Origin: a virus
Taxonomy: Duplodnaviria > Caudoviricetes
Virus record (IMG/VR): IMGVR_UViG_3300036971_000130
DNA length: 64,000 nucleotides
Direction: 5' to 3' (one strand)
The first letter of the stretch is position 1; each line of letters begins with the position of its first letter. This document shows positions 9,241 to 36,820 of this stretch, one piece after another. Under the pieces are notes generated by a model that was not told the DNA's origin, did no database searches, and was given only the letters and a program-made list of their open reading frames with translations. A program made the position numbers and the translations under genes.

Positions 9241-10122
9241 TCAGCCGGGGGTGACACTCCCAAGCGGCTCGCCGTAATTGTCGAACTCGGGCATCTCTCC
9301 GTAGCGGTGGAGAGGGAAGCTGTCACCGTCACGCTTCTTACGCCAGACCGTCGGGATACTCACCTCGGTGAATCCGTGCTTGGTCATGGTCCCACGGCGC
9401 TTGGGGGACGGTGTAATCCATCTCACCGAATCGCCGTCATCGTCCTTGACGCACCACTTCGATCCGTACTGCGTCGACACCATCCGGATGTCATCTCGGA
9501 CCTGCCCAGTTTCGAGATCGACGAGGTAGGTCTTGTCGTAGCTGAAGTACCTGTCGTCGGATTCGATGATCCCCAGCGAGCATTCCTCGCAGGTGCAGCC
9601 ACCGAGGTACTTCGTCGGGTGGCCGTGAGGTGCAACGAACGCACAGTCCTCGCAGGTGCAGCCGTACTCCAACCGAGAAAGCGTTCCGTGTTCACCGTAC
9701 TCAGCGGTGATCGCTGCTTCACGAGCTTCCGTCTCGGCGTCCCACTTCCTCCGACGGGCTTCAGCTTCGTCGAGTCGACGGGCGGCACGCCAGTCTCGCC
9801 AGTGCCGAGCGAGTTCCTCCCTGTTCATTCCGACTCGCTCGGCGCAGTCGGACCCGATGTCATGGACCGTTCCCGTCTTCGTGTCCTCGACGACGTAGCA
9901 GTTGATGATGGCGGTGCCACAGTTCGCACAGGTACCGCCCGGTTGGACCGGAGCGTCAGGGGCAGCCTGGAACACCTTGCGGGTGAAGCCCTTGATCTTG
10001 CACTGCGACAGCCAAGGGAGCGTCGACCCGAGGTCGACATCGGACTTCGAGTGCTCGACCGTCCCGAACTGGCCGTCGTTGCCAGCCTCTCCGGTGTGCT
10101 TCTTGCGGATCTTCTCGCTCAC
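9241..10122 (-). CDS. Cys/His-rich (Zn-binding) hypothetical protein with N-terminal R..GQF..H...DL tag
   Basis: GTG start at 10122 overlaps the upstream stop. CxxC...GSDC and two HG-x-GCTCExC motifs. Confidence 0.7.
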   Translation of the reverse strand: MSEKIRKKHTGEAGNDGQFGTVEHSKSDVDLGSTLPWLSQCKIKGFTRKVFQAAPDAPVQPGGTCANCGTAIINCYVVEDTKTGTVHDIGSDCAERVGMNREELARHWRDWRAARRLDEAEARRRKWDAETEAREAAITAEYGEHGTLSRLEYGCTCEDCAFVAPHGHPTKYLGGCTCEECSLGIIESDDRYFSYDKTYLVDLETGQVRDDIRMVSTQYGSKWCVKDDDGDSVRWITPSPKRRGTMTKHGFTEVSIPTVWRKKRDGDSFPLHRYGEMPEFDNYGEPLGSVTPG

Positions 10123-10982
10123 TACGACCTCGTCACGCTGTCGATGCCGTCGAAGAACATCTTGGCGAACCAGCGAACAGGTCGGAGAGACGACCTGAAG
10201 GCCCGCTCCTTCCACATGTCTCGGCGGTTCTGCTTGGCCTGCTTCTCAGCTTCGATGTTCCGCTCCCGGAACGCCCGGTCCTGGTCCACTAGCTTCTGCT
10301 CGTTCACCTGGTGGCGTTCGAGGTGCCGCTGCATCGCTTCGACAGCGTTCGAGTCGATGTAGGGGTCGCCGTAGTCGTCGACGCTCGTGACGATGTACCC
10401 GCTCCATCCAGCGGCCCTGGCCTTGTTGTGGAGGTCGATGATGCCGGGGAGGTTCCGGGCTGGGACCATCTGCGACTTCCGAGGCGAGTCGATCAACTGG
10501 TCCGGGTTGTTGTCCTCGATGTGGTGAAGGGACCGGATGATGTAGTCCCGGTTCTCGTCACCTCGGTCGTAGAAGTCGTCGTCAGCGAGAGGTCGGACCG
10601 GGAACCCGTCCTCAGGCTCGACCAGCGGAGCCCTCTGCTCCATGTCGGCCAGCAGTGCTTCTCTCGCTCGGTCCGCCCGAGCCCAGTCGGGTTCGTTCGG
10701 GTAGTCGTCTGCGGTGATGTCGCTGACACCATCCCAGAGGTCTCCTTCTGGTGCGGAGCGATCCAGCCACTCCCCGAACTCGGGGTCGTCCATGAGGATG
10801 TCGTCGTAGTTGTCGTCGTCGTCGTCGGTGAGGTCGCTGGTGAGGTCGAGTTCGGGTCCTCGACCGAAGTCCGTCCTGTCGAACCGGCCACGGTCTCGGT
10901 TCTGGCTGTGGCTGTGATGAGCGTCGCCGTGATGGCGGCTACCATCCTGCGGAGGTCGGAACGAGGGGGAGAATCCAGGCAT
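10122..10982 (-). CDS. Acidic hypothetical protein with N-terminal RDRGRF...DL tag; probably leaderless
   Basis: 286 aa ORF; CCAATAGTT sits 5 nt before the ATG and there is no RBS. Confidence 0.7.
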   Translation of the reverse strand: MPGFSPSFRPPQDGSRHHGDAHHSHSQNRDRGRFDRTDFGRGPELDLTSDLTDDDDDNYDDILMDDPEFGEWLDRSAPEGDLWDGVSDITADDYPNEPDWARADRAREALLADMEQRAPLVEPEDGFPVRPLADDDFYDRGDENRDYIIRSLHHIEDNNPDQLIDSPRKSQMVPARNLPGIIDLHNKARAAGWSGYIVTSVDDYGDPYIDSNAVEAMQRHLERHQVNEQKLVDQDRAFRERNIEAEKQAKQNRRDMWKERAFRSSLRPVRWFAKMFFDGIDSVTRS

Positions 10983-11065
10983 ACTCCAACTATTGGCGGC
11001 TGGCTGGTCAACCCGCCACCCATGATGATCTGGAAGTACTCACCCGAATAGGACATTCCACCCAA

Positions 11066-12815: not shown

Positions 12816-13334
12816 TCAGTGGTCAAGCCAATCGGGAACCATCTCACTCGGCCCCCAACCGATGAAGGAAGGCTCGTTCTGAACGTCCCACCATTCGAGA
12901 GCGTCGTACGGGGTGAAGACCCGGTCCGGCTCACCGACCTTGGATGGGAACGGAACCGGGTACGCCCGCATCCGACGCTTGTCTTCTTCGGTGAGAATGT
13001 CCTCGTGACGAAGCATCATCTCGCATCGAGCAAGCATCCGGGCTTCCTCGGAGATGATGTTGTCCGGACCACCGAGGCGTGCGGTGACCACGTCGATCAC
13101 GTCGTCGGGAACATCGACCGTGGTCCAGAACCCGACGTATTCCTCCACCGACCGGAAGTGGGGAGGGTAGACGAAACTCCCCTTCTCGACCGGCATCCGG
13201 AGGTTGTCCATCGGCTCGTGGTAGTTGGCGGTGAACTGACCGCCCTGGGGTGTTCCTGCCGCCAGACGGGCACGTCGAGCGCCAGGGGTCGTCGCCTCCC
13301 GGACGAACCGGGCAAACTTCTGTCCAAAGTTCAC
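12816..13334 (-). CDS. Hypothetical protein with N-terminal RLAAGTPQGGQF..H..NL tag
   Basis: 172 aa; GTGA coupling to the upstream gene. Confidence 0.65.
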   Translation of the reverse strand: MNFGQKFARFVREATTPGARRARLAAGTPQGGQFTANYHEPMDNLRMPVEKGSFVYPPHFRSVEEYVGFWTTVDVPDDVIDVVTARLGGPDNIISEEARMLARCEMMLRHEDILTEEDKRRMRAYPVPFPSKVGEPDRVFTPYDALEWWDVQNEPSFIGWGPSEMVPDWLDH

Positions 13335-15161: not shown

Positions 15162-18100
15162 TCAGCTTCCTGTCGTTGACCAGTGCCAAGACTCGCTCGG
15201 CAGGTTCTTCAGTCCGTACTTGGCTGCGTTCTGAGCCAGCCACTTGTAGCAGGCGGTTGCCCGAGTCGAGCAGTTCGCCCAGTCGATCGCAAGACCCTTC
15301 TGGTGCTGGGACTGTCCCGGCTTGGCAGTCGGGGGACGGCACGAACCGGACGGCATCTCGTAGATGGCGTACTGGGACGTACCGCAGTGCTTCTTGCGGA
15401 GTTCGATCTGGAGGGTGACGGACCGGTAGGAGTTACCGACAGCCATCGGCACACCGTCAGCGGCAGCGTCAGCGATCAACTGGTTGATGATCGGCACCAT
15501 CTGGCAGTTCGTCTCTGCGTTGCCGATCGGGCAGACAGCGACCGGAGCACCAGAGTCGATGTTCACGATCATCCCGTCGCCTCCACCGCTCACCGAGCAG
15601 TCGGTCGCCGGAGTGGCGGGGAGCCCGGTTGCGAGCCCCTTCAGGAACTCGGCATACACCTTGTAGCCCTCAACGGTGTAGTGGATGCCGTCATCGGCCC
15701 GCTTGCCCTCCATCGAGGTCTTCGCAGCGGCGTCCCAGTCGGCCACCTTCAGGTTCGGGTAGGTGCTCGTCGCTTCGGTCAGGGCGGCGTTGACCCCGTC
15801 CTTGGCGGCACCGAGCTTCGTGGAGCCGGTGTCGACGTTCACCCACTGGACCTGCTTGGTCGTGCCGACCATGTCCATGACCGACTTGATCTTGGCGGCG
15901 AAGTCTTCCTTCGTGCTCGTGTAGTCGTTCGTGCCGAGAGCGATGATGATGGCGTCGGAGTTCGGAGCTTCCTTCGTCACGATCTCCGGGGCCTCCGAAG
16001 TCGGACGACCGACCTTGGCGTCGACCGTCCACTCGCTCGGCAGCCCGGCGGTCTTCGCTCCATCGGTGAGAGAGTCACCGATGAGAAGGACTCGGGCGGG
16101 AGTTGCAGGGGTGCCTGCGACCGTCGTGGTCGTGGCCTCACCGCCAGTCGTCGTTGCACCGGCGGCAGTCGTGGTGGTAGCTCCTGCGGCCGTCGTCGTG
16201 GTAGCCCCGGACCCGGACGTGTCACTCGGAGTGCCGTTCGGGAGAGGACTGCTGTCGGAGTCGATGATGGGGAACCAGCCGACAGGGGTCGACTGGGTCA
16301 CGCCGTAGGTGGCGTTGCTCTCCTTGATGGTGGCGAGGATCGCCGCAGCATCCGGGATGGCCTCGGCGTACTTCCCAGGGTAGGCGGAGACCTGAACGTC
16401 CTGAGCGGCAACACCCGGCTCCATCGCCTCCCAACCAGCGTGATCGAGAAGACCAGGAGGGTTGCCCTTGTTCGGTCCGGTCGGACCACCGTAGAACGCC
16501 CTCGACGAGTAGATGGCGTCACCGACCTGCTCCTTGGTGCCCCATCCAGATGCGGGACGCTGCTGGAACAGACCAACCGAGTCGTGGTCGACAGCGACCT
16601 GACCGTTCAGGAGGTTGAGTTCGACGATGGCCGTCGCCAGAGCGATGATCTGTCCACGCTCGGGGACACCCATCGACTTGCCGACATCGACGATAAGGAC
16701 GGCGTTCGCCCAACGCTGCTGGGTCAGCGGGATGTTGTGCCCCTTGTAGGCGAGGATGTCACCGATCTTCAGCGGACCGCTCGTGGGAAGCGGGATGCCG
16801 GAGACACCGCTCTGCGAACCCGAACCACACGCTGGGGTCTGGTTCATCCATGCGAGCGCCGTGTTGTAGATGGTTCCGGCAACGATGTCGGAGTTCTGTC
16901 CGTCCGAGAGGCCCTTCAGTGGGAGAGCCTTGATGACGGCGAGCCAGCCCTCCTTCTCCATCTCGAAGGAACCATCGGGGCCGAACTTCTGCTCGACCTT
17001 GATGGCGTTGATCTGGCGTGCGACGTAGACCGTCGAGTCGTACGGCTTCTGGACATCGACCTCAGCCTTGTCGCTGATCGCCTTCTGTTCCTCGACGTAT
17101 GTGTTCCAAGCTTCTTCTTCGACCAGCATCATCCCGTACCACGGACCACCCTGGACCTTGATGTCCTGCTGGGTGGTGGTGGTCACCGGAGCGGTCGTCG
17201 TGGTTGCGACCGTCGTGGTCGTGTCACCTCGAACCGTGATCGGAGTTTCCGTCGTCGACGTTGCACCTTCAGCGGTGGTGGTCGTCGTCATCGACTCCGA
17301 AGCGACGTTGGTCGGGGCCATGTTCGAGATCGGCGTGTCATCCACGATCGGCGGGTCGGTGATCGGGAAGACATCGCCGTCGTGGGGGACTTCGGTGGTC
17401 GTGGTTGCGCCTTCGGGCTCGACGAACTCCACGGTCGTTGCCGTGGCGAGAGGGTGATCCTTCTCGTAGTCGTCGGGGTTGTAGTCGTTGGCGTAGTCCT
17501 CCATCATCTTGCCGTCGGCGTCGTACGGCCAGATGCGGACCTTGCCGTCTGGGGCAGCCATTCCGTGGTTGGTCTCGTACCGTCCGATGGCGGCGAGGAT
17601 CTGCCACTGGACATCGTTGTCGTTGCCGATCTGCTGGTACATCATCAGAGCGGAACCGGGCGTTCCATCACGCATGGCGTACTGTCCGGAAGCAACGTCG
17701 TTCTGCGACATCGACATCGACATGCCGCTCACGCTGATCAGGACCATGACCAGCAGGAGCCCGACCATGAGTAGCGGAGACAGGAGAGCGAGAGCGGGCT
17801 TGATGAACTCCTTCAGGCCCTTCTTCGCCGCACCTCCGATGCCGTCCTTCTTCATCGACTTGGCGAACTTCTTGCCGCCCTTGATGCCGGAGGCAACCAG
17901 GCGAGCGGGCGGTGGGGCAGCCTTCGAAACGGCGTCGAGGCCCTTGTCTGCGGCAGCTTCAGCGCCACCCTTCTTCGCTGCACCGGCAGCGGCACCGGCT
18001 GCACCTGCGGCAGCGGCCTTGCCTCCCGACTTCCCGCCCTTCTTGTCCTTGCCTGAGCGGTCGGGCGTCTCAACGCCCTTCTTGTCGTCCTTCTTGTCCT

Positions 18101-18560
18101 TGCCGATGCTGGTGAGCGCACTCGTGCCCTTGGCTGAGTCCTTCTTGTCGTCGGAGGACTCGCCGGACTTCTTCCCCTTCTTCCCGCTGCCGGTGGCGGA
18201 GACCTCGGCCTCCCCTCCACCTTCGGCTCCGGTCTCGTTGCCGTGCTCAGGAGGGTTCTCGTCGCTGTGGTCACCACTGTCGCTGTCGTCGTCGGCTTCG
18301 ACACCACGAAGTGCGGCGCTCTTGCGCTCACGTTCCTTGGCCGTCATCGTGCGACCACGACCGGACTTCGACCAGTCACGGGACGGACCACGACGGGGGA
18401 CAGCCGGGGTTTCCGGTTCGGGAGTTGGCTCCGGGGTCTGATCCTCGGAGGTCTTCTCCGGTGTCCGGTCCTCGGGCTTCTCGACAGGATCGCCCGAAGG
18501 CTGAGGACGATCCTGGTCCTCAGCCTTCTGGTCTTCTGGCTTCTCGTTCATCTCACTCAT
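15162..18560 (-). CDS. Multidomain conjugative cell-wall hydrolase: two lysozyme/transglycosylase-like domains, SGNH domain, M15 D,D-peptidase
   Basis: True start is ATG 18560 (MSEMNEK), in ATGA overlap with the VirB6-like stop. TM helix; WQILAAIGRYETNHG; IALATAIVE...DSVGLFQQRP..GWG...VQVSAYP; IGDSL/ALGTND/DGIH; SYRS...PGQSQHQKGLAID...ESWHW. Confidence 0.85.
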   Translation of the reverse strand: MSEMNEKPEDQKAEDQDRPQPSGDPVEKPEDRTPEKTSEDQTPEPTPEPETPAVPRRGPSRDWSKSGRGRTMTAKERERKSAALRGVEADDDSDSGDHSDENPPEHGNETGAEGGGEAEVSATGSGKKGKKSGESSDDKKDSAKGTSALTSIGKDKKDDKKGVETPDRSGKDKKGGKSGGKAAAAGAAGAAAGAAKKGGAEAAADKGLDAVSKAAPPPARLVASGIKGGKKFAKSMKKDGIGGAAKKGLKEFIKPALALLSPLLMVGLLLVMVLISVSGMSMSMSQNDVASGQYAMRDGTPGSALMMYQQIGNDNDVQWQILAAIGRYETNHGMAAPDGKVRIWPYDADGKMMEDYANDYNPDDYEKDHPLATATTVEFVEPEGATTTTEVPHDGDVFPITDPPIVDDTPISNMAPTNVASESMTTTTTAEGATSTTETPITVRGDTTTTVATTTTAPVTTTTQQDIKVQGGPWYGMMLVEEEAWNTYVEEQKAISDKAEVDVQKPYDSTVYVARQINAIKVEQKFGPDGSFEMEKEGWLAVIKALPLKGLSDGQNSDIVAGTIYNTALAWMNQTPACGSGSQSGVSGIPLPTSGPLKIGDILAYKGHNIPLTQQRWANAVLIVDVGKSMGVPERGQIIALATAIVELNLLNGQVAVDHDSVGLFQQRPASGWGTKEQVGDAIYSSRAFYGGPTGPNKGNPPGLLDHAGWEAMEPGVAAQDVQVSAYPGKYAEAIPDAAAILATIKESNATYGVTQSTPVGWFPIIDSDSSPLPNGTPSDTSGSGATTTTAAGATTTTAAGATTTGGEATTTTVAGTPATPARVLLIGDSLTDGAKTAGLPSEWTVDAKVGRPTSEAPEIVTKEAPNSDAIIIALGTNDYTSTKEDFAAKIKSVMDMVGTTKQVQWVNVDTGSTKLGAAKDGVNAALTEATSTYPNLKVADWDAAAKTSMEGKRADDGIHYTVEGYKVYAEFLKGLATGLPATPATDCSVSGGGDGMIVNIDSGAPVAVCPIGNAETNCQMVPIINQLIADAAADGVPMAVGNSYRSVTLQIELRKKHCGTSQYAIYEMPSGSCRPPTAKPGQSQHQKGLAIDWANCSTRATACYKWLAQNAAKYGLKNLPSESWHWSTTGS

Positions 18561-21367
18561 GGCGTGGTACCTCCACCGGAACCGCCCCCGCCGGAACCTC
18601 CGGAACCACCAGTGCCGCCAGAGCCGCCGCCACCAGCGGGACGGCCACCGCCACCATGACGACCGCCACCACCGTGATGACGGCCACCACCGTGATGACG
18701 GCGACCGTTCGAGCCAGCACCGCCGCCACCACCAGCCGGGCGAGGACGGTGATGCGGTCGAGGCGTGCCACCACCGCCGCCAGCGGGGTTGTTGCCGGGG
18801 TTGTTGTTGTTCCCATGGTTCCGAGCGTAGCTGTCCACGGCAGTGCGCTGGTGATCCATGAAGTACCTGGACGTGGTCCTCTGGTCGCCATCGGGGTTCC
18901 GACGACGTTCCATCATGTTGCGTCGAGCACGGTTCAGGGACCGAGCACCGGCAGCCGCAGCCACCGGAACAGCGATCGGAGCAGCGAACGCCGAAGCGCC
19001 GAACGCAAGGCCAGCACCAGCGAGGATGGCACCTCGGGTAGCCATGCGCTTCATGCCGCCGCCCTTCTTCCAGTTCGACAGGCCGTTCTTCGCTGCGCCA
19101 CCGAGAGCGCCGAGGCCGTACTTGGCACCAGCCCAAGCCTGACCGATGCCAGGTGCGCTCCGGACCTTGTTATAGAACCCGGACATGAACTTCGTGTTCG
19201 AAAGCTGACCCGCACGATGCGTCGAGAACGGAGCCCGGAGGTTCGCCAGAGCGCCGTGCTTCTGACGAGCAGGCTTCGCAGCCGCAGCACCAGCAGCAGC
19301 AGCACCAGCGGCAGCACCGGCAGCGGCGGATGCACCAGCGGCCTTCCGCTTGTTCCTGACCGCAGTGTTCTTGCCGTAGGAACGACGATCGAGACGACGA
19401 TCGACGGCCCGACGGGCGGAACTCGTACCACGACGAGCGAGACGATCGACACCGGCGACGGTGGCTCCGCCAGCAGCACCAGCCAGAGCACCGTAAGCCA
19501 TGGCCGACGACGGCGAGAACGGCGACGGCATGCCCATGGCATCCTTCATAATCTTCTGAAGGATGATGATGGCGGTGATCGGAGCGAAGCCCATCCACAG
19601 GAGTTGCAGGAAGGAGCCAGGCCCGAAGGACTCAATGCCGATCTGGTTCAGGAACCCGGTCACGATCGTGACGAGGCCGAGGATCAGCATGAGGCCAGAC
19701 GAGTAGATCGTCATGCCGAGCAGGAACTTCACGAACTTGGCAAGCTTCGAGTCCCCGCCCCCGGACCCGAACAAGGCGAAGACGAGCATCGGGAAGATCA
19801 TCACGATCATCACGACCGAGACCGTCTTGGCGATGATGACACCACCAGCGATGAGACCGAAGACGATCATAATGAACAGGGCCGAGATCACGTAGATGAA
19901 GGCGACCGCCATCGAGTTGGCGTAGGCGTCACCGTGCCAGGTCATCAGGAAGTCACGGGCGCTCGACGATTCCTTGGTGTTGTCGTTGATGTAGCCGGAC
20001 GAGTCGGTCCACTCGAATCGGGTGTCCTCGGCGTTCCAGTCGTCCCAGACGCTCTCGCAGGATTCGGCCCACGAAGTTCCGTCCTCGCCTCGGGTGACCT
20101 CGGGCCAGGAATCCTTGCCTCCACCTTCGGCGGACTCGTCCGAGGTCGGCTCACCCTTGACGTTCACGGTCGTGAAGTTGCCCTTGGAGTCGAGAGCACA
20201 GCTAGCCCACCAGATGCCAGCCTGGTCCCTCGTCTTGTTGTTGCCGCCGGTGAACAGTTCCGTCGACGGGATCTGAGACTCGAACTTGTTGAACACCATC
20301 GTCGAAGCAGCGATGCGGTCACGCTCACGGGTGGCGTCGAAGCCTGCACCCTTCGCCTTGTTCTTGTAGCCAGCGATGTACTTGGCGTCGACCAGCTTGT
20401 ACCCGGCGTTGCGATCGAGCAGGCGGCAGTAGACACGCTCGCCGTAGTTGTTCTTGGTGCCGAACTGGACCCGGATGTAGGAGGACAGGCCAGACTGCTC
20501 CCACATCGACGAGATGACGAGAGGCAGCGAGGCAGCGTCCGGGTTGCGGACGTTGTTGGTGTAGCGGGCACGCAGGTTCGCCACGTACATCCGGCACGAG
20601 AGCGGATCGTTGGCAGAACTGTTCCCGGAGGTTCCGTAGGCACCCGGACCAGGCATCTGGTTCACCAAGGCGTTCGTCGGCATCGACGCCACCGAGGTGA
20701 CGATGTTCTCCGTCTTCTGGGCGAACCAGGCGGGCGAACCACCTGCCACCTTGTTCGTCTGGTTCGTCTGGATGGCACCGTTCATCAGGACGATGAAGAC
20801 GGTCAGCGTCATCACGGTCTGGACGAGCTTCTTCTTCGGGTTCTCGGCGGTCTTGTTCGCCTTCCAGAGAGCGCCGATGATGGCGCACGCAGCGGCGAAG
20901 GAGACGAGCCCGGAGTCCAGCATGGCGTTGCCGAGGGACGCCGACACCCGGTCGGCCGCACAGCCGCCGGAGTCGAGCAACGTGTAGTCGGAGGCGAACA
21001 TGATGAAGCCACCGGCGACGGACCAGAACGTGTCACCCCAGGTCAGGGAGACCGACTGGATGAAGCTTCGGTTCAGCTTCTTGTCGATGTCGTCGGTGAC
21101 GCCAGCGCCAAGACGGGAGTGAAGCTGGGACGTGGAGCCAGCCCAGCGGGTCAGCGGCAGGTACTTCTCGGCCTTGACCTTGCTGTCGGTCTCGTCGCTG
21201 AGAGTGGCGTCTTCCGCCTGGACATCGTCGAATCGACGGCATTCGCCGTTGGCCGACGCCTGGGCGGCAACGGCGTCAGGGGTCTGGGCATGGGCCGCAC
21301 CGGAGAACGCCCCGAACAGCATCACGGCCGTGAACATCACGACCAGGATCTTGGAGATGAGCTTCAC
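18557..21367 (-). CDS. Polytopic conjugation membrane protein (VirB6/TcpH-like)
   Basis: Signal peptide (AHA|Q), two clusters of TM helices, Ala/Gly-rich basic C-terminal tail; lies between the PrgI-like gene and the hydrolase. Confidence 0.7.
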   Translation of the reverse strand: MKLISKILVVMFTAVMLFGAFSGAAHAQTPDAVAAQASANGECRRFDDVQAEDATLSDETDSKVKAEKYLPLTRWAGSTSQLHSRLGAGVTDDIDKKLNRSFIQSVSLTWGDTFWSVAGGFIMFASDYTLLDSGGCAADRVSASLGNAMLDSGLVSFAAACAIIGALWKANKTAENPKKKLVQTVMTLTVFIVLMNGAIQTNQTNKVAGGSPAWFAQKTENIVTSVASMPTNALVNQMPGPGAYGTSGNSSANDPLSCRMYVANLRARYTNNVRNPDAASLPLVISSMWEQSGLSSYIRVQFGTKNNYGERVYCRLLDRNAGYKLVDAKYIAGYKNKAKGAGFDATRERDRIAASTMVFNKFESQIPSTELFTGGNNKTRDQAGIWWASCALDSKGNFTTVNVKGEPTSDESAEGGGKDSWPEVTRGEDGTSWAESCESVWDDWNAEDTRFEWTDSSGYINDNTKESSSARDFLMTWHGDAYANSMAVAFIYVISALFIMIVFGLIAGGVIIAKTVSVVMIVMIFPMLVFALFGSGGGDSKLAKFVKFLLGMTIYSSGLMLILGLVTIVTGFLNQIGIESFGPGSFLQLLWMGFAPITAIIILQKIMKDAMGMPSPFSPSSAMAYGALAGAAGGATVAGVDRLARRGTSSARRAVDRRLDRRSYGKNTAVRNKRKAAGASAAAGAAAGAAAAGAAAAKPARQKHGALANLRAPFSTHRAGQLSNTKFMSGFYNKVRSAPGIGQAWAGAKYGLGALGGAAKNGLSNWKKGGGMKRMATRGAILAGAGLAFGASAFAAPIAVPVAAAAGARSLNRARRNMMERRRNPDGDQRTTSRYFMDHQRTAVDSYARNHGNNNNPGNNPAGGGGGTPRPHHRPRPAGGGGGAGSNGRRHHGGGRHHGGGGRHGGGGRPAGGGGSGGTGGSGGSGGGGSGGGTTP

Positions 21368-21780
21368 TGGCGGCTGCTCCGAACGTAGTAGGGGACGGTC
21401 CCGTTGACGGGGACCGACGACCGAGAGATGACGTAGTACCGGCAGAAGATCGGCTCGACAGGCTGACCTGCGACGACCCAGGTTCCGACGTTCGACTTCT
21501 TCTTGGTCCTGATGTGATCCCAGAGAGGAAGCCGGAGACCTGACTGGACTCGGTAGTTGATGAAGAAGAAGAAGATCCCGATGACCAGCGGGATGCAGAG
21601 GATGGAGTTGATCCCGAAGAACGGGAAGGCCAACAGCGTGACGAACACACCAGGGAGGAACCCTGCGATGCAGATGATGAAGGTCTTCTGCTGGATCTCG
21701 AACCCAGAGATCGTGACACGACGAGACTCGTTGAGGTCTCGGGTCAGGTGGGTGAGGGTGAATACCTCGTAGTCGCTCAT
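21364..21780 (-). CDS. PrgI/TcpE (VirB3-like) two-TM conjugation protein
   Basis: ATG 21780 with RBS AGGAGG; two TM helices then R..GLR.P.W; position in the tra operon. Confidence 0.6.
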   Translation of the reverse strand: MSDYEVFTLTHLTRDLNESRRVTISGFEIQQKTFIICIAGFLPGVFVTLLAFPFFGINSILCIPLVIGIFFFFINYRVQSGLRLPLWDHIRTKKKSNVGTWVVAGQPVEPIFCRYYVISRSSVPVNGTVPYYVRSSRQ

Positions 21781-21801
21781 CTTTTCCTCCTGGTCAGACG
21801 A

Positions 21802-21831
21802 GAAGGGCGACACCCGGAGGTGTCGCCCTTC
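21802..21831 (-). terminator. Perfect 13-bp hairpin (UCCG loop) after the pilin-like gene
   Basis: GAAGGGCGACACC-TCCG-GGTGTCGCCCTTC. Confidence 0.7.
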
Positions 21832-21855
21832 GATGTGGTGGGCTGCGGACGACGC

Positions 21856-22194
21856 CTACGAAGCGTTCTTCGAGATGATCTTGGCGAGGGCGTTGGCGAG
21901 AAGGTCGATGATCGTGAGGATGTTCGGGATGATCAGACCCGGAGCCGACAGGATCGCACCGATGAGGATGGCGTAGCCGATGTTCGATCCGCTACCACCA
22001 CCACCGCCGCCACCGCCGGACTTGCGCTTGTCCCACAGCATCTTGACGACAGCGAAGACGACGATCAGCATGCCGACGACGTTCATCAGGGTGGTGATGC
22101 CACCCAACGTCCCCGAGATCGTCTCCCAGAAGTCCTTCCAGCCTCCTGCGAGGTTCACGGTATCGCCGGTTGCTCCGAAGATGGTGCTCAACAT
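21856..22194 (-). CDS. Small two-TM pilin-like (VirB2/TrbC-like) conjugation protein
   Basis: 112 aa, two hydrophobic helices separated by a Gly-rich loop; RBS AGGAGG; first gene of the tra operon. Confidence 0.55.
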   Translation of the reverse strand: MLSTIFGATGDTVNLAGGWKDFWETISGTLGGITTLMNVVGMLIVVFAVVKMLWDKRKSGGGGGGGGSGSNIGYAILIGAILSAPGLIIPNILTIIDLLANALAKIISKNAS

Positions 22195-22261: not shown

Positions 22262-22705
22262 TCAGGATGCCCGGACGAGCATCTCCATCTCCCGAACTTC
22301 GGGATCGCTGAGAATCCTCTCCCGCTGCTCATTGGAGAGCGGGAAGCGGAGAAGATGACGAAGAACGATCGGGGACGAATCGCCAGCGAGCAGGTCGTTG
22401 ATCTTCGGATCGCCACGATCGGCAAGCTCGAAACGGACCATCGGAGACGGGTCGTCGACAAGGCGACGGGCCTGCTCGTCCGACAGGACGGGGTTCGTTG
22501 CAGCGGTCGCCCGAACGTGCTCGCTCGGGTGGTTGACGAACTCGTCGAGCGACTGGCTGTCGTTGCAGTTGAACGCAGCCTCGATCGCCTCGTCGTCGAG
22601 GGCGACCGGGTCACGGCTGATCTTCGGGTCGCCGCCGGTCCCGTACTGGGAAGGACCGAACGTGCCGTTGCCGAAGCGGATCTGGCTGGTGTTGTCGTTG
22701 CTCAT
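22262..22705 (-). CDS. LRV/HEAT-like repeat protein with N-terminal RFGNGTF tag
   Basis: ATG 22705; repeats HPSEHVRATAATNP, DPSPMVRFELA, DSSPIVLRHLL. Confidence 0.65.
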   Translation of the reverse strand: MSNDNTSQIRFGNGTFGPSQYGTGGDPKISRDPVALDDEAIEAAFNCNDSQSLDEFVNHPSEHVRATAATNPVLSDEQARRLVDDPSPMVRFELADRGDPKINDLLAGDSSPIVLRHLLRFPLSNEQRERILSDPEVREMEMLVRAS

Positions 22706-22715: not shown

Positions 22716-24071
22716 TCACGCCGAGACCTTCGTCCGGGTTCGAGGGGCGGTTGCAGCGAGGATCGCCGCATCCCAGGTTTCGTCCTCACGTCCGGGAACG
22801 AACATGATGGTCTGCATGATCTTGCGCTGGTCCTCGTAGGTCCCAGCGTCACTGAACGGGGCGAACAGCGCCCGGACCGTCCGGTCGCTTGCCGTCTCGT
22901 CGCTCCACTGACGCCACGCCTCCGCTACTCCACCGACATCAGCGATTGCCTTGCGGTGAGCGGTTGCACTGGTCGTCGAGAACTGCTCGTCACCGGACTT
23001 GACCTGGCTTGCGCCGGTCTCACGACGGAGGATCGACCAGAGTTGACGCTTGATCATGCTCTTGTCGCCACCAGCGAGAGCCTCGGCAGCGCCATGGTCG
23101 AAGGTGCTGAAGGTCGTTCCGGCCTCCATCGGAGAACTGGAACCGGTGAAGCTCGGGGCGGCGATGTCGATGCCGGGGCTGTCCTCGTCACCGCCAGCGT
23201 CGAGGGACAGCGTCCCACGCTTGATCTGCTGGATCGAGTGGAAGCCGATCGTCGGACGGCGGGTTGCAGCGAAGCCCATCCGGATCTCATCCGCGATCTC
23301 GTCACGGCGGGCTGCCGAGACAGGACCACGACGGCCTTCTTCTTCGACTCGCTCGGACCACATGCGGTAGGCGTTGCGGTTCACCGACTGATCGGTGCCC
23401 GTGATGGCCTGACGAGCGACGTTGTCGACGATCGTGTTGATGTTCGGAGCGGCAGAGGTGAGGATGCCTCCCGGAGCGATGACACCTTCGTCATCGACCA
23501 GGCGGCTCTCGCCGTCCACCATCCGGCGACCGTTGGCTCCACGGACACGCTCGACGAAGCGAGACTGGGTGTTGCGCCAGGTCGTCAGGAACTCGCTGGT
23601 GGCAGCGTTCACGAGGTCTTCGTGGCTGTCGAAGTGCTGTGCGAGGGAGTCACGGGACCGCTTGAAGTTGAGACCTGCACGGAGGTTCAGCGTCTTCAGG
23701 ACGACCGCCTCGTCGTAGGAGCCGACGCCGTAGGCATCGAGGATCTCCTGGTCGGTAGCGGTCTCCGGGTCGATCGTGGCGAGTTCGTTCGAGCGGTCGG
23801 GAACGAACTTCTCGCCCTTGGCTTCAGCGGCACGCCGAGCACGGCGCTCACGCATTCGGGCGAGACGATCCTCAGGGATGACGACTTCCTCGAACACGGG
23901 AGCAGGAACAGGAGGGTTGTCCTCCTGCCACTCGGAGATGTCCGCTCGGATGTTGCGCTCGAACATGGCGTCGATGTCGACCAGGTCAGTGGTAGCACCG
24001 AACCCACGATCGCGAACGGAGAACTCTCCGACAACGTTCCGAGGGTGGCGTGCTTCATCCCAGGTCTTCAT
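22716..24071 (-). CDS. Hypothetical, possibly divergent sigma-70-like protein, with N-terminal WDEARHPRNVVGEF tag
   Basis: ATG 24071 follows CCAATAGTT-N5. HEDLVNAA is region 2.2-like and LSLDAGGDED is region 3.2-like. Confidence 0.6.
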   Translation of the reverse strand: MKTWDEARHPRNVVGEFSVRDRGFGATTDLVDIDAMFERNIRADISEWQEDNPPVPAPVFEEVVIPEDRLARMRERRARRAAEAKGEKFVPDRSNELATIDPETATDQEILDAYGVGSYDEAVVLKTLNLRAGLNFKRSRDSLAQHFDSHEDLVNAATSEFLTTWRNTQSRFVERVRGANGRRMVDGESRLVDDEGVIAPGGILTSAAPNINTIVDNVARQAITGTDQSVNRNAYRMWSERVEEEGRRGPVSAARRDEIADEIRMGFAATRRPTIGFHSIQQIKRGTLSLDAGGDEDSPGIDIAAPSFTGSSSPMEAGTTFSTFDHGAAEALAGGDKSMIKRQLWSILRRETGASQVKSGDEQFSTTSATAHRKAIADVGGVAEAWRQWSDETASDRTVRALFAPFSDAGTYEDQRKIMQTIMFVPGREDETWDAAILAATAPRTRTKVSA

Positions 24072-30999: not shown

Positions 31000-31000
31000 A

Positions 31001-31451: not shown

Positions 31452-31631
31452 ATGGACATGAACCGCTTCCAGAGGATCACCACCAACACGGAACTCGTGA
31501 ACGCCTTGTTCTACGTTCTCGTGTGGACGATGTGCCTCGTCACCAGCGTCATCGCCTTCAGGATCAACGACATCGCAGGGTTCATCACCATCCTGGTCAT
31601 CGCCTACCTGTCCAACGACAAGAAGAACTGA
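31452..31631 (+). CDS. Small two-TM membrane protein
   Basis: MDMNRF...; two hydrophobic stretches, 59 aa. Confidence 0.5.
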   Translation: MDMNRFQRITTNTELVNALFYVLVWTMCLVTSVIAFRINDIAGFITILVIAYLSNDKKN

Positions 31632-31636
31632 CCGCC

Positions 31637-32702: not shown

Positions 32703-33385
32703 TATCCACAGGCTACTGTGGACGACCAGTTCATGCGAACAGCACCAGTGTTCGATGCGTAGCGGACCGAGTAGCTACCAGGCGAGACGCCGAAGTCCTT
32801 GGAGATGGAACCGCCAGCGGACTCGTTGATGTTCACGCCCGGCCCGGAGACGGACAGGCTGACCGTGCCATCACCGGAGACGTTCAAGCTCAACGACCCG
32901 GAGCCGGAGCAGGTGATCGTCTGAGTCTTCGACACGCCGCTCTGCGGTCTCGTGGTGACCACCGGCGGCTGCGTGGTGACGACAGGTGGGTCGGTGACCA
33001 CCGGAGGATCGGTCCTCGGAGTGGTGACCACCGGCGGATCAGTGGTCGGAACGGTCTCGGGTGACGTGGTGATGACCGGAGCTTCGGTGGTGGTCGTGGA
33101 CTCCACCGGTTCCTCAACGGTCGTCGTGGTTTCCTTCGGCTTCCCGGTCGTCGACGTGGTCGTAGGCGGCGTCGTGTTCGTGGTCTCCGTGGCCTTCGAC
33201 GTGGTCGTCGAACCGTTCGCCACAGCGGGGGTCTTCTTGCCGCCCTGACCGATCGCCAGGAAGCCACCTACCCCGAGCACCACGATGACCGTGAGGACGG
33301 CAACGACGAGCTTCAGGGGTACGCCGAACCTCCACCGGAAGGTGGAGCCCATCGACCTCTCGAACTCGATCTTGTTGCCGTCCAT
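32702..33385 (-). CDS. Membrane-anchored Thr/Pro-rich surface protein with small C-terminal beta domain
   Basis: ATG 33385 with RBS GAGAGGA; TM helix, TDPPVVT repeats, two Cys. Confidence 0.65.
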   Translation of the reverse strand: MDGNKIEFERSMGSTFRWRFGVPLKLVVAVLTVIVVLGVGGFLAIGQGGKKTPAVANGSTTTSKATETTNTTPPTTTSTTGKPKETTTTVEEPVESTTTTEAPVITTSPETVPTTDPPVVTTPRTDPPVVTDPPVVTTQPPVVTTRPQSGVSKTQTITCSGSGSLSLNVSGDGTVSLSVSGPGVNINESAGGSISKDFGVSPGSYSVRYASNTGAVRMNWSSTVACG

Positions 33386-33465
33386 TTCAGTCCTCTCACG
33401 AGAAGTGCCCGGCCCCATTGTAGGGACCGGGCACTCAGGTTCTCATTTAGCCCCGAAGGGCCGGA

Positions 33466-33891
33466 TCAGAAGGCTTCCTCGTCGTTGGACGCTGCGGCGG
33501 CAGTCGGACGAGCGGAACCGTTGCCACCGCCGTTGCCGGATGAGCGGGTGATCTCCGCCGTGGCGAAGGCGAGGTCGACGGACACCTTGTCTGCAACGAT
33601 CGAGGTGACGGGGACCTTGACCTCGTTACCCTCGTCGTCCTTCAGGACACGGTCGAACTGGGTCAGGTAGCCCTCGATCGTGACGCGGTCGCCCTTCTTC
33701 AGCGTCTTCGAGGCGTTGACGGCGCTGAACCAGTTGGTGACGGAGAACCGGATCGAGGTCTCGTTGTCGCCGCTGCCCTCGTTGGAGATGAGGAACAGGT
33801 TGACACGAGCCTTCTTGCCGTCAGCAGCGGGGGTGAAGGTGGGATCGGAACCGAGGTTCCCGGTGATGAACACCGTGTTGTTGAACGCCAT
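33466..33891 (-). CDS. ssb: Single-stranded DNA-binding protein
   Basis: NTVFITGNLGSDP, LKKGDRVTIEGYL, acidic tip DEEAF. Confidence 0.93.
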   Translation of the reverse strand: MAFNNTVFITGNLGSDPTFTPAADGKKARVNLFLISNEGSGDNETSIRFSVTNWFSAVNASKTLKKGDRVTIEGYLTQFDRVLKDDEGNEVKVPVTSIVADKVSVDLAFATAEITRSSGNGGGNGSARPTAAAASNDEEAF

Positions 33892-33908
33892 GATGGTGCT
33901 CCCTTGGT

Positions 33909-33954
33909 AGACCGGCCGTAGCCGGTGGTGATTGGAGACCGGCCGTAGCCGGTG
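33909..33954 (-). repeat. Two identical 19-bp hairpin-forming direct repeats in the ssb leader
   Basis: AGACCGGCCGTAGCCGGTG at 33909 and 33936; on the mRNA strand each folds as ACCGGC-UACG-GCCGGU. Confidence 0.8.
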
Positions 33955-33987
33955 ATAAGGAGCCGGAATCGCTGGCTTCTTGACTAC

Positions 33988-34009
33988 ATTCTCTACAAGG
34001 GGGCTGACA
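33988..34009 (-). promoter_or_regulatory. PafBC/RecA-NDp-type promoter of ssb, TGTCAG-N10-GAGAAT
   Basis: Same motif and spacing as at 11843, 43190, 44287 and 57627. Confidence 0.65.
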
Positions 34010-34047
34010 GTCTGTGGTGATTTACGAGGAATCTCCGAAAGATTTTC

Positions 34048-34758
34048 TCAGAACCAGTTGCCGCCGAAGGCACCGACATCGAACAGCCGCCAGGTCACGA
34101 AGCCGATGGCGAGCAGCAGGAGCGGGGAGACGATCGAGTTCTCGACGAACCCGCCGGACTTGAACAGGCCAGCGGAGAACTTCGTCTTCGTGAACGGGGC
34201 CAGCCAGGAGATACCTGCGGGCGTCGGTGTGTCACCCAGCAGGTGCGTGAAGTAGGGGACGGGGATCGCTGCGTAGAGCCACCAGTCGGGCTGGAACCCC
34301 TTGGTGGCGGCGAGCCAGGCGACGAAGATGCCGACAGGGATGGCGATGGCAGCAGCCACCTTCTCGTACTTCTCGGGGAGGATCGCTGCGGTACAGAACG
34401 GCCATCCGAGGGCGATCGTGAGGCCGAGGGTGGCACCGAGTTCCCAGCCGGGACCGAAGACGTTGATGAGCGCCCACACCCAGGCGGTCAGGAGCGGAAT
34501 GATGACGAGCGGCCAGTGGGTGCGGGTCCGGTGAGCGCCGGTGAAGATCCGCATGAAGGAACCGAGCGGTCCAGCGACCTGCGACGCCTTCGAGTGCTTC
34601 TCGTCGATGTCCGCTGCGAGAGCGGCACCTGCGGCCACGACCGCCCCGGCAACGATCACCGATGGCAGCGGGAGGTTCAGGTCCCAACGGGAGTGAGCGA
34701 GGACGAGAGCGCCACCGTAGGCAGCGACACCGGACATGGCGTGGTTGAGGCCGTTCAT
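34048..34758 (-). CDS. YdjM-like membrane-bound metal-dependent hydrolase
   Basis: M.G.NH, GAALAADID...S, HRTRTH, THLLGD..TP.G; several TM helices. Confidence 0.85.
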   Translation of the reverse strand: MNGLNHAMSGVAAYGGALVLAHSRWDLNLPLPSVIVAGAVVAAGAALAADIDEKHSKASQVAGPLGSFMRIFTGAHRTRTHWPLVIIPLLTAWVWALINVFGPGWELGATLGLTIALGWPFCTAAILPEKYEKVAAAIAIPVGIFVAWLAATKGFQPDWWLYAAIPVPYFTHLLGDTPTPAGISWLAPFTKTKFSAGLFKSGGFVENSIVSPLLLLAIGFVTWRLFDVGAFGGNWF

Positions 34759-34811
34759 GGTCACCATCATGGGTCGGGAAGCGGACGAAATCGTACCCCA
34801 TCGTGTGACAT

Positions 34812-35264
34812 GTGTGTACACTCCCCTTCGTGGAAAAATGGGATGTCAGATACCGAGCCCTGATCGAGTACGTGGAGCGTGAGGGCCTGATCCCGTCCGC
34901 CCGCCGAGATCAGCGGATGGGCTCATGGGTGGCCGAGCAGAAGCGACGGCTCCGGAAGGGGATCATGCCCACCGAGCAGCGTGAGCTTCTCGAAGCCATC
35001 GACGGTTGGTACTGGGACAACGAGGATCTCCATGCCAGGGCTGGGTACAGTTCGCTCTGGAAGCGCAACTACGACAACCTGCTCACCTACATGGCCGAGA
35101 ACAGCCGGTACCCTTCGCAGTTGAATGCGGATCGCTCGATCAGCAAGCTCGGCTCCTGGGTGTCCAGGCAGCGTCAGACGTACCGTGGGGACAAGAAGTC
35201 ACGCCCCCTCACGGCTCGACAGATCGAGATGCTCGAACGCCTCCCCCAGTGGAACTGGGGTTAG
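34812..35264 (+). CDS. Stand-alone tandem helicase-associated (HA) domain protein
   Basis: Two W...Y..L..Y....G..P.....G.WV..Q....R.......R...LE.I..W.W repeats. Confidence 0.8.
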   Translation: MCTLPFVEKWDVRYRALIEYVEREGLIPSARRDQRMGSWVAEQKRRLRKGIMPTEQRELLEAIDGWYWDNEDLHARAGYSSLWKRNYDNLLTYMAENSRYPSQLNADRSISKLGSWVSRQRQTYRGDKKSRPLTARQIEMLERLPQWNWG

Positions 35265-36820
35265 CGCCGGTACCCGAGGATGTTCTCCAAGGCGATCGCA
35301 CGACCTTCGGCGTTGGCGTCGTAGGTCTGGCTGCTTCGGTCCACGTCGTAGCCAGGCCGGATCGGGTTGTAGAGCAGGTCGCTCGGTTCCCTCTTGTCAG
35401 CGATCGCTTCAGCGGCGCTGACGTACCCGGCGACGTAGGCGGAGAGTTCAGATCCGGTCTTGTCGGTCGGCGGGATCGTGGTGCCTGCGAGAGCAGGGTG
35501 CGTCGAATGGGTCTCGGCCTTCCACCTGTCCGGGTGGTTGGTGGCGAGCGCCACGGGGCCAGAGGGTCGGGTGTACGGCTTGTTGGCTGTCCGGGCCTGG
35601 TGTGATCCGGCGATCGCCCTCGTCATCTGATCGACCGCTTCGACCGTCTTGCGTCGAGGGTTGTACGGGGACAGTGTCCTGACCGAAGCCGAGATCCTCT
35701 TGTTCGTGTCGAGCAGGACATCGAAAGCTTCGTCGTAGCTGCTCGTGGCGAGAGCCGGGTCCCTGATGATCTCGTCAGCGAAGCCGCCGAATCCCGCTCC
35801 CCACTTCCGGATGGTCCTGTGGGGGATGCCGGTCTCGCCGTGGATGTGGGCGACATCCTCGGGGCTGAGAGGGGTGCCGAGGTAGTAGCTCCCGTCCGAG
35901 AACGAACGCCCCTCCACGATGGTCGACCCGTACACGCCTTCGGGGGCGTGGTCAGCGAACAGGACGGCGATGGCCGTTCGACGACTCAGGTACACGGTGA
36001 GGTTGGGGTCCGACTCGGTCTCGAAGGTCTCGGAGGAAACGAGGCCACGGAGACCAGCGTCCGAGATGAGAGGTGGCACGGTGTCGAAGTGGTCTTCCAG
36101 GAGAGCGATGCGCTGGTTCCGACCGACGAGGTGTACCCTTTCCAGAATGCTGCCAGGCATCGGCGTTCCCGTGCCTTCCCTGCTGATCGCTCTGACGAGA
36201 TCCGATGCGACATCGTCGTTCGGTGAGATGCCGTACTCCCTGGCCTGGTCAGCGAGACGGGGGTTCGCCCCGAGTTCCTTCCAGCGAAGCGCCTCACCCA
36301 GTGGGTACCCGGAGTCGGTCCACTTCCGTTCCTCGGTGACCGGAATCCCGGCCATGAGCCATTCGAGGGACCGGTCGCATTCGGACGTGATGAGTTCGCT
36401 GTCACGCCACCCGTCGGGGAACACCGCTTCCTCGTAGGAGATGAGCAGGTCGTCCTCCCCCATCAGGCCATCCTCGGTCGAGTAGCCAGACCAGACGACC
36501 TGACCGTCGGCATCGAGAACGTAGGCCAGGTGGTCCGCTCCGTCGGGAACGTGATCGCCGTAGTCGAATGGCCTCGTCGAGATCGTGAGGGACGAGACCC
36601 AAACCGCTTCCTCCGGGTCGAAGTGGGACGGCGAGACCAGGTCGTAGACGTTGGCCTCGGTGTCGGAGTCGAAGACCGCCCCATCGAGTTCGTTCAGCCG
36701 CTCATCACGGATGGTCGAAACAGACGAGAGGTCGATGTCCGCCCCGAAGTTGTGGACGAAGCTGGTCCACCTGCCGAGACGATCACGGGGGCCGGAGCCA
36801 GGGGGCATTGTTGAGGTCAT
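35261..36820 (-). CDS. Hypothetical protein with N-terminal PRDRLGRW..H..G.DIDL tag; probably leaderless
   Basis: 519 aa; CCAATAGTT-N5-ATG; WxxxG helical repeats mid-protein. Confidence 0.7.
   Translation of the reverse strand: MTSTMPPGSGPRDRLGRWTSFVHNFGADIDLSSVSTIRDERLNELDGAVFDSDTEANVYDLVSPSHFDPEEAVWVSSLTISTRPFDYGDHVPDGADHLAYVLDADGQVVWSGYSTEDGLMGEDDLLISYEEAVFPDGWRDSELITSECDRSLEWLMAGIPVTEERKWTDSGYPLGEALRWKELGANPRLADQAREYGISPNDDVASDLVRAISREGTGTPMPGSILERVHLVGRNQRIALLEDHFDTVPPLISDAGLRGLVSSETFETESDPNLTVYLSRRTAIAVLFADHAPEGVYGSTIVEGRSFSDGSYYLGTPLSPEDVAHIHGETGIPHRTIRKWGAGFGGFADEIIRDPALATSSYDEAFDVLLDTNKRISASVRTLSPYNPRRKTVEAVDQMTRAIAGSHQARTANKPYTRPSGPVALATNHPDRWKAETHSTHPALAGTTIPPTDKTGSELSAYVAGYVSAAEAIADKREPSDLLYNPIRPGYDVDRSSQTYDANAEGRAIALENILGYRR

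Follow-up and report, generated by a model that had tools for sequence, protein, structure and literature searches.

The internal proteins of phage T4 (IPI-III and Alt), which are packed into the head and injected, carry a short N-terminal capsid targeting label on otherwise unrelated bodies. Known substrate signals of type IV secretion systems (T4SS), i.e. C-terminal basic tails, BID domains and the relaxase signals TSA and TSB, either reside at the C-terminus or are folded domains within the protein. Polyvalent proteins, which are encoded by phages and conjugative elements, contain diverse effector domains; their delivery together with the DNA was predicted and has been shown in a few cases, and the "header" proposed for them is the ArdC-N domain and not a linear motif (Iyer, Burroughs, Anand, de Souza, Aravind 2017, J Bacteriol, PMC5512222). 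Temperate phages encode MuF polymorphic toxins, i.e. head-module proteins with a variable C-terminal cargo that is presumed to be virion-borne (Jamet et al. 2017, PMC5576092). Here, we analysed six proteins (P1 to P6) encoded in a stretch of 64,000 nucleotides, referred to as the window (IMG/VR record IMGVR_UViG_3300036971_000130), for which an earlier note made from the sequence had proposed a common N-terminal tag that serves as a portable address label. We found that the six N-termini can be assigned, with support that differs between them, to an undescribed N-terminal short linear motif that is widespread in mobile elements.

Translation of the window confirmed that all six tag peptides are present at the starts of the respective genes, which are located on the minus strand. 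The Cys-rich protein P1 (293 amino acids, 9241..10122) bears its tag at residues ~6-30 (KKHTGEAGNDGQFGTVEHSKSDVDL; nt ~10009-10110), and the acidic protein P2 (286 amino acids, 10122..10982) has the tag core at residues ~26-50 (NRDRGRFDRTDFGRGPELDL; nt ~10824-10925). The tag of P3 (172 amino acids, 12816..13334), located at residues ~22-45 (RLAAGTPQGGQFTANYHEPMDNL; nt ~13176-13277), is of a near-canonical GGQF type, and P4 (147 amino acids, 22262..22705) starts with a degenerate tag (residues 1-33; nt ~22601-22702), which is followed by an LRV/HEAT-like helical repeat body. P5 (451 amino acids, 22716..24071), a core protein of the plasmid family introduced below, starts with MKTWDEARHPRNVVGEFSVRDRGFGATTDL (nt ~23964-24065), which is a canonical WDExxHPRxxxGxF, and the orphan protein P6 (519 amino acids, 35261..36820) carries the tag GPRDRLGRWTSFVHNFGADIDL (nt ~36710-36811). 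The G-x-[FW] core is placed within the first ~35 residues of all six proteins: P1, P4, P5 and P6 have it at residue 14-17, and P2 and P3 at residue 32. The architecture of the tag comprises one or more basic residues (often HPR or RxP), 2-8 further residues, G-x-[F/W], 4 residues, [H/R/Y/F], another 2-8 residues, which are often acidic or Pro/Gly, and a final [L/I/V]-x-L. We conclude that five of the six N-termini very probably represent local, diverged versions of a single portable short linear motif (~25-30 residues), and that P2 is reasonably likely to belong to the same family. Membership is based on sequence for P1 and P3, on orthology for P3, P4 and P5, and on a profile of the HPR type for P5 and P6; P2 is the weakest member and rests on its architecture and on a common promoter box.

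The window alone cannot prove the motif, and the six-way likeness is not significant by itself. A regular expression defined post hoc was enriched within the first 40 residues of the open reading frames (ORFs; 9 observed vs 1.07 expected, p=2e-6), with three of the nine matches being spurious, and a profile of the six sequences matched no further ORF of the window. Since the similarity within the window is weak, confirmation comes from outside evidence. Using tblastn, we identified a conserved and partly syntenic backbone that is common to the window and to three complete Micrococcales megaplasmids from cultured strains, namely pACHL01 of Pseudarthrobacter chlorophenolicus A6 (427 kb), pYJN5-1 of Paenarthrobacter sp. 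YJN-5 (440 kb) and pCPAA3 of Curtobacterium pusillum AA3 (567 kb); a further relative is a 195-kb scaffold (scaffold 5) of Arthrobacter terrae Z1-20. When the window was searched in six frames with a profile of the pACHL01 tags, P3 was the best match (E=7.4e-5), and with a profile based only on the very diverse tags of pCPAA3, P1 (E=1e-4) ranked first and P3 (E=2.5e-4) second. An external HPR profile ranked P5 (E=0.008) and P6 (E=0.018) first and second among 41 window proteins, which is a weak recovery, and an iterated profile seeded with pACHL01 tags stayed near the GGQF flavour and recovered P3 only. A motif profile had been suggested as a check in the earlier note; leave-one-out profiles confined to the window failed, and external profiles recovered P1 and P3 and, weakly, P5 and P6.

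The single consensus put forward in the earlier note merges at least two flavours, i.e. the GGQF type (P1, P3) and the HPR type WDExxHPRxxxGx[FW] (P5, P6), to which P2 probably belongs as well. Copies of the HPR type are also encoded on pACHL01 and pCPAA3 (e.g. DHPRGAAGRFIPDVRAEPAITL) and combine an HPR start with an ending of the GGQF type, from which we conclude that the two flavours belong together. That proteins of phages and plasmids contain HPRxxxGxF and PxGxPxGGQF peptides, as mentioned in the earlier note, proved correct, as such peptides were found in pACHL01 and in phage proteins.

Support from orthologous genes differs between the six proteins. Tagged orthologues of P3 are present on three elements (pACHL01, pYJN5-1 and A. 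terrae), and the tag found in orthologues has the canonical form RxPxGxPxGGQFAxxxHxEPxxxL. The body of P5 has a homologue in every one of the four relatives, and each of these orthologues opens with a tag variant of its own (NRVPKGIPTGGQFAATTHAEPTLSL, NRVPKGVRTGGQFAATAHAEPTVSL or RNRNTGKPGNGGHFDG...DEDITL). The P4 tag itself gave no significant match to profiles built from other elements; the gene next to the P5 orthologue in the relatives encodes a tagged protein with an LRV-repeat body and represents the P4 orthologue, which in A. terrae is supported by tblastn (E=2e-4) with a gapless alignment from residue 1 and a canonical tag, and which is assigned by position in pACHL01 and pYJN5-1 (three elements in total). 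For P1, the stretch KKHTGEAGNDGQFGT aligns with RKSHTGEAGNKGEFGT of two pCPAA3 proteins, the tags of which read RKSHTGEAGNKGEFGTHTRSEAEVTL (E=1.6e-5 and 6.9e-5), and a tblastn match to pCPAA3 covering residues 1-79 (E=3e-5) indicates a partial homologue. No homologues were found for P2 and P6, neither of which matches pACHL01, pCPAA3 or A. terrae.

The bodies behind the tags are unrelated, as had been proposed, since no body-body pair among the six reached E<0.1 in BLASTP, and no Pfam domain scored above its cut-off in any of them; all six are solo proteins of 147-519 amino acids without an LPD domain. Direct reading of the six tags also agreed with the proposed absence of Sec or Tat signal peptides: the hydrophobic fraction is 0.15-0.29, and a hydrophobic run resembling a signal peptide is absent. 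The LRV repeats that had been read into P4 were supported, because the best PDB match of its AlphaFold2 (AF2) model was 1LRV, with the Pfam LRV match remaining sub-threshold. For the "sigma-like" body of P5, no confirmation was obtained. Neither Pfam sigma70 region 2 nor region 4 was detected, PDB profile and Foldseek searches gave nothing that would identify an extracytoplasmic function (ECF) sigma factor, and the AF2 model of the A. terrae orthologue was poor, with a mean predicted local distance difference test (pLDDT) value of 54 and meaningless Foldseek matches. The remaining indications are weak leads only, i.e. sub-threshold NCBIfam ECF matches of the pACHL01 orthologue (357317-358351; E=3e-4 vs cut-offs of 43-260 bits) and atlas neighbours of the P5 family toward ECF sigma factors with scores of 0.89-0.90.

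The tag is abundant on the megaplasmids of the cultured strains, and the tag family used here is an operational one, which is defined by the pACHL01 copies and not a published family. On pACHL01, 49 ORFs match M-x(0-11)-RQP[KQR]G[IV]PxGGQFAATxH[AS]EPxxxL, corresponding to 9% of the 541 annotated features, and in 47 of these 49 the tag begins 0-11 residues past the nearest upstream ATG, with the remaining two (offsets 49 and 75) looking like mis-chosen starts. pCPAA3 encodes ~30-45 tags of many flavours. The tagged bodies of pACHL01 are unrelated, soluble and mostly of unknown function; the recognised ones include an NAD-dependent DNA ligase, Fic, a ParB-like nuclease (ParBc_2), LPD29, DUF2958 (two copies) and DUF7007. 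Therefore, the statement of the earlier note that recognisable enzymes lack the tag is valid for the window and not for pACHL01, where the DNA ligase and Fic are tagged. In the plasmid-encoded ligase (303216-305318), the tag forms an N-terminal extension of ~30 residues. The largest tag cluster of pACHL01 (from 228 kb down to 200 kb) is located directly downstream of, and co-directional with, the genes for a type IV coupling protein (T4CP) and a 1416-amino-acid FtsK-like protein. The latter was considered as an EccC-like protein of a type VII secretion system and rejected, as it has a single FtsK domain only. Several stand-alone Clp_N-domain proteins are encoded just upstream of the T4CP gene (242527-245906) and are also present in pYJN5-1, but not in pCPAA3.

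Selection on the tag acts at the peptide level. In the 49 tags of pACHL01, the codons of conserved residues are invariant at positions 1 and 2 and differ at position 3, with five codons each being used for Arg and Leu and Glu being encoded by 20 GAA and 26 GAG. The peptide is modelled as disordered or flexible: AF2 predicted no secondary structure for P4 residues 1-33, with pLDDT values below 50, and a helical repeat with values of ~90 for residues 38-146, and the tag region of the A. terrae P5 orthologue remains below 30. The tag is also restricted to the mobile element in the two host genomes tested. All 38 tag matches in the A. terrae genome are located on two contigs, one of which is the 195-kb scaffold bearing the P5 orthologue, and all three matches in the C. 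pusillum genome are located on the plasmid; a high frequency in host chromosomes, which would have spoken against the earlier note, was thus not observed in these relatives. In a Micrococcales sample, four of 301 genomes contained a tag match and 297 did not. A search of 401 Actinomycetes genomes with the six-tag profile gave no match, which is uninformative on absence. No model of the tag exists in Pfam, NCBIfam or PHROGs, and the peptide was not described in the literature that was searched for its motif strings.

The tag is also found in phages. A profile of P2, P5 and P6 only was searched against 1.84 billion proteins and, apart from these three proteins themselves and a low-complexity repeat protein, apparently a chance match, returned two phage proteins. 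P0004, a polyvalent protein of 1682 amino acids with an ART-PolyVal domain (E=6e-8), contains six [DP]W[DR]ExxHPRDxxGx[FW]-like copies at module starts, and in P0006 (E=3e-4) an XkdF-type protease domain is preceded by three LWDExKHPRDHGxF copies. On direct reading, the P6 tag is identical to HPRDKDGRWTD of P0004 at 7/11 residues. The gene for P0004 lies in a head-gene cluster, just upstream of the minor and major capsid genes, and that for P0006 between the portal-MuF and the major capsid gene. The motif also occurs on the genes downstream of P0004 and of P0006 and on a cut ORF upstream of P0004, and is lacking in the portal, MuF and capsid proteins of the two clusters. The core WDExKHPRDxxGx[F/W] opens modules of phage polyvalent proteins and of proteins in prohead-protease or scaffold position. 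In p60 of Pseudomonas phage F116, a relative of P0004, no clear HPR was seen at the matching junction, which means that the motif is not obligatory at every module start. Since phages carry it, the tag is not limited to T4SS-bearing elements.

Three of the six genes are preceded by an identical box. On the minus strand, CCAATAGTT is located 5 nt before the ATG of P2 (10988..10996), P5 (24077..24085) and P6 (36826..36834), and the exact arrangement CCAATAGTT-N5-ATG occurs three times in the whole window, each time heading a tagged unit. With its AATAGT, this box may be the -10 element of a promoter for leaderless transcripts. The GTG start of P1 and the stop of P2 overlap by one base, which suggests that P1 is translationally coupled to P2, and the start of P4, which is led by a Shine-Dalgarno sequence, lies 10 nt past the stop of P5. 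Together with the boxes, this places five of the six genes in three units with one promoter type. Similar but different boxes precede untagged genes of the window, which uses boxes of the CC[CA]ATnnT type (e.g. 34758 on the minus and 29538 on the plus strand). The equivalent box of pACHL01 and pCPAA3, GCCG[CT]ACAC-N9-ATG, is distributed element-wide right at start codons (122 copies in pACHL01) and is perhaps read by an element-specific factor; 29 of the 74 box-led ORFs of pACHL01 match a loose tag regular expression. As a general rule, a tag-specific role of the box is ruled out: the pACHL01 box also heads many untagged genes, and we conclude that it is probably the element's general leaderless promoter and not a marker of the tag.

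The window has a G+C content of 63%, with genes on the minus strand up to position 44257 and on the plus strand beyond. A Pfam scan identified DnaE with an intein, a VirB4-like AAA_10 ATPase with a Hint insert, a TcpC-like protein, a DUF3854/Toprim protein, a PD-(D/E)XK nuclease, DinG-like and SNF2 helicases, a class II ribonucleotide reductase, SSB, HNH, a MinD/ParA-like ATPase followed by a J-domain protein, and a giant surface protein with SdrD_B repeats. The backbone genes in common with the relatives are those for DnaE, the VirB4-like, TcpC-like and DUF3854 proteins, the PD-(D/E)XK nuclease, the DinG-like and SNF2 helicases and the MinD-like protein. As T4SS markers, the element encodes the TcpC-like protein (sub-threshold) and the intein-bearing VirB4-like AAA_10 ATPase (48366..53302, plus strand), which have orthologues in pACHL01 and pCPAA3; the relatives encode VirB4-like and FtsK-like genes, with a T4CP in pACHL01 and pCPAA3. 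From this we conclude that the uncultured, plasmid-like element is a distant metagenomic member of a Micrococcales plasmid family whose representatives are giant (0.4-0.6 Mb), encode VirB4, TcpC and T4CP, and have the tag as their hallmark. Neither in the three complete relatives nor in the Pfam scans of the window was a match to an HK97-type capsid (Phage_capsid), Terminase_6N, Phage_portal or Mu_F obtained. Closer relatives were sought in several ways. P5 itself occurred only in metagenome samples of the JGI, with a longest contig of 233,542 bp; a P5 homologue search, a related-locus search of viral contigs with DnaE and P6, and searches of PLSDB (megablast with window positions 20000-40000, tblastn with P6 and P1) gave nothing or only the query itself, and a metagenome scan with the promoter pattern CCNCCAATAGTTNNNNNATG gave 120 chance matches and no relative.

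P5 and P4 head a conserved operon that runs into membrane and hydrolase genes. This module (15162..22194, minus strand), which lies 3' of P5 and P4, shows conserved synteny among the relatives, comprises two small membrane proteins (21856-22194 and 21364-21813), a secreted protein of 936 amino acids that bears a signal peptide (18557-21367) and a large protein in which GDSL lipase and VanY domains are combined (15162-19136), and looks like an envelope module of the transfer apparatus. As listed, the ORFs 15162-19136 and 18557-21367 overlap by ~580 nt, and the GDSL/VanY protein probably starts further downstream than listed. Inteins are apparent in both DnaE (24105-29111, minus strand; Intein_splicing/Hint) and the VirB4-like ATPase (49553-53302, plus strand; Hint_2). 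At 39058-41820 (minus strand), the MinD/ParA-like protein (633 amino acids), a core gene common to the window, pACHL01 and pCPAA3, consists of a small N-terminal domain, a Pro-rich linker of ~230 residues and a P-loop domain, and is followed by the J-domain protein, which has membrane segments at its C-terminal side. The surface protein (2-7341, minus strand) exceeds 2446 amino acids, has a signal peptide and 13 SdrD_B/prealbumin-like repeats, and runs past the left end of the window. An ORF with a helicase-associated (HA) domain (34809-35264) is encoded on the plus strand within the block of minus-strand genes.

Regarding the function of the tag, we consider it likely that the peptide serves as some kind of signal, either as an address or for docking to a partner. 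To this extent the proposal of the earlier note fits the observations, as the tag is N-terminal, modelled as disordered, under selection, attached to unrelated bodies, confined to the mobile element in the two host genomes tested and present on phage polyvalent proteins; its specific claim of co-transfer through the T4SS goes beyond them. More tentatively, and with the balance of our judgement still slightly on the side of doubt, the tag may be a ride-along delivery signal, i.e. a header or docking peptide for proteins that are handed over with mobile DNA. It would be read by a shared partner, and the tagged proteins would accompany the mobile DNA into the next cell, with the conjugation machinery as the route for plasmids and the capsid interior as the route for phages. 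There, the delivered proteins might act early, e.g. in DNA sealing, anti-defence or host takeover. The motif marks both phage head-module proteins and many solo proteins of T4SS-bearing megaplasmids, and "go with the DNA" is the simplest common denominator of the two. We further count for delivery the cargo-like bodies of pACHL01 (NAD-dependent DNA ligase, Fic, ParB-like nuclease, LPD29, DUF2958), the position of its tag cluster behind the T4CP and FtsK-like genes, and the fact that P5 and P4 head the operon of the envelope module in the window. The explanation as a whole is the best we can offer, and we hold it with a little less than even confidence.

Several points weigh against this explanation. 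Within the window, hidden Markov models built from five tags miss the sixth member, which does not rise above six-frame noise, and pairwise phmmer comparisons among the six tags all gave E>=0.25; P2 was recovered by no external profile, i.e. neither by the pACHL01 tags nor by the external HPR profile nor by the pCPAA3 tags. Known T4SS substrate signals are C-terminal or internal and not N-terminal, and as the export machines of phages and plasmids are unrelated, one receptor for both is hard to picture. The megaplasmids lack the HK97-type capsid, Terminase_6N, portal and MuF, so that the phage mechanism is not simply transferable to them; for the plasmids, a capsid-based mechanism is in fact ruled out, since no capsid, terminase, portal or MuF gene was found. 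PLSDB types the three complete relatives as non-mobilizable, and no report of conjugation was found for any of them. Finally, the occurrence of several flavours on one element (pCPAA3, the window) argues against a tightly co-evolving element-specific receptor.

Instead of leaving the cell with the DNA, the tagged proteins might be recruited to one hub within the same cell, which would serve plasmid positioning, assembly or timed turnover and not transfer. The hub could be encoded by the element or by the host, with the core ParA/MinD-like ATPase, a chaperone system (J-domain protein and DnaK) and a Clp adaptor as candidates. We consider such intracellular docking unlikely, although an N-terminal peptide that is modelled as disordered and has an invariant basic residue would suit it, and although the 633-amino-acid ATPase is a core protein of the window, pACHL01 and pCPAA3, is followed by the J-domain protein, and Clp_N-domain proteins are encoded upstream of the pACHL01 T4CP. 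The core motif is found in phage head-module proteins without a ParA neighbour, and we see no reason for ~50 unrelated enzymes to need one positioning ATPase; the Clp_N proteins are missing from pCPAA3 despite its dozens of tags and are thereby ruled out as a universal partner. A host machine as the target was also considered: the tagged genes would be early genes in the manner of a leading region, expressed normally in the new cell, and the tag would tether their products to a conserved host component, with no protein transport being involved. The location of the pACHL01 tag clusters downstream of the T4CP and FtsK-like genes, as might be seen for a leading region, and the leaderless promoter boxes that many tagged units have for themselves are in line with this idea, and a universal host target would fit a motif that spans phages and plasmids of different phyla. 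However, the phage motif lies in head-morphogenesis modules, i.e. in late genes and not in early regions, the flavours differ widely even inside one host, and on direct reading none of the known universal hub motifs (clamp QLxLF, SSB tail, Tat RR) matches the tag, which makes this alternative rather improbable.

A protease could also cut at the tag, at module boundaries in polyvalent proteins and behind an N-terminal propeptide in solo proteins, and thereby activate or release the body. The motif does stand at module starts of P0004 and in three copies before the XkdF-type protease domain of P0006, and proteolysis of polyvalent proteins has been predicted (Iyer et al. 2017, PMC5512222). Nevertheless, we regard a processing site as distinctly improbable, as cleavage at plasmid tags located 0-11 residues past the Met would remove almost nothing, ~25 conserved positions are far above the need of a cleavage site, and no protease conserved across the tag-bearing plasmids was detected in the searches made. 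A resemblance due to chance or composition, or a signal that leaderless 5' ends carry in the nucleic acid and not in the peptide, would mainly concern P2 and is in our view very improbable. It would agree with the leave-one-out and pairwise tests within the window, which were not significant, and with the common promoter box right at the ATG of three of the six genes. On the other hand, five of the six are supported by external profiles and orthology, the synonymous variation at conserved residues indicates selection on the peptide, P1 and P4 are tagged though not leaderless, and the pACHL01 box also heads many untagged genes (29/74 box-led ORFs match the loose regular expression). For P1 and P3-P6, this reading is largely refuted.

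Returning to the delivery signal, a far-reaching version, to which we assign a low probability, would make it a ride-along signal in general use by both tailed phages and giant conjugative plasmids, by which pre-made tagged proteins would be exported with the DNA and boot up the element. Candidates would be P5 (possibly ECF-sigma-like), the DNA ligase, the nuclease and Fic, and host RNA polymerase might be switched to the leaderless boxes of the element. If true, this would represent a new sequence-defined protein-delivery code that comprises ~10% of the megaplasmid genes and is testable in a cultured strain. Already if the tag is an address label, sequence alone would tell which proteins are sent ahead with the DNA by a large group of plasmids and phages, and would provide a direct catalogue of establishment and anti-defence candidates, mostly of unknown function, a handle on the receptor and possibly a portable tag for protein delivery between bacteria. 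These ideas are directly testable, as both P. chlorophenolicus A6, with the 49 tagged genes of pACHL01, and C. pusillum AA3 with pCPAA3 are cultured.

Compared to the systems described above, the tag resembles the T4 capsid targeting sequence, with the packaged Dar proteins of phage P1 as a kindred system, in being a short N-terminal label on unrelated proteins. It differs in that the T4 sequence has ~10 residues, is unrelated to the tag and is cut by the prohead protease at L/I-x-E, and in that no capsid, portal, terminase or MuF genes were found in the megaplasmids or in the window. To MuF toxins there is a positional likeness, since P0006 is encoded just downstream of portal and MuF genes, but none of the six bodies is a recognised toxin, MuF was not found on the plasmids, and the motif is not mentioned by Jamet et al. 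2017 (PMC5576092). The partner peptides of ParA/MinD ATPases (ParB, MinE and McdB-type adaptors) are likewise short, disordered and N-terminal with key basic residues, and the window encodes a MinD-like ATPase; they differ in having one adaptor per ATPase as opposed to ~50 tag clients and show no sequence match to the tag. With T4SS signals, the tag would share the role of an address for exit via a conjugation-type channel, for which the element has VirB4-like and TcpC-like genes and its relatives a T4CP, but unlike them it is N-terminal. With regard to polyvalent proteins, a text search of Iyer et al. 2017 (PMC5512222), which defines domains, found no description of the tag motif, and the six window proteins differ from this class as solo proteins that lack two or more effector or LPD domains. 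The likeness lies in the encoding elements, since polyvalent proteins belong to phages and conjugative elements and the window has VirB4-like and TcpC-like genes and plasmid relatives, and in the domains themselves: some tagged proteins of pACHL01 carry LPD29 or ParBc_2, and the HPR core starts the ART-PolyVal module of P0004, which does qualify as a polyvalent protein.

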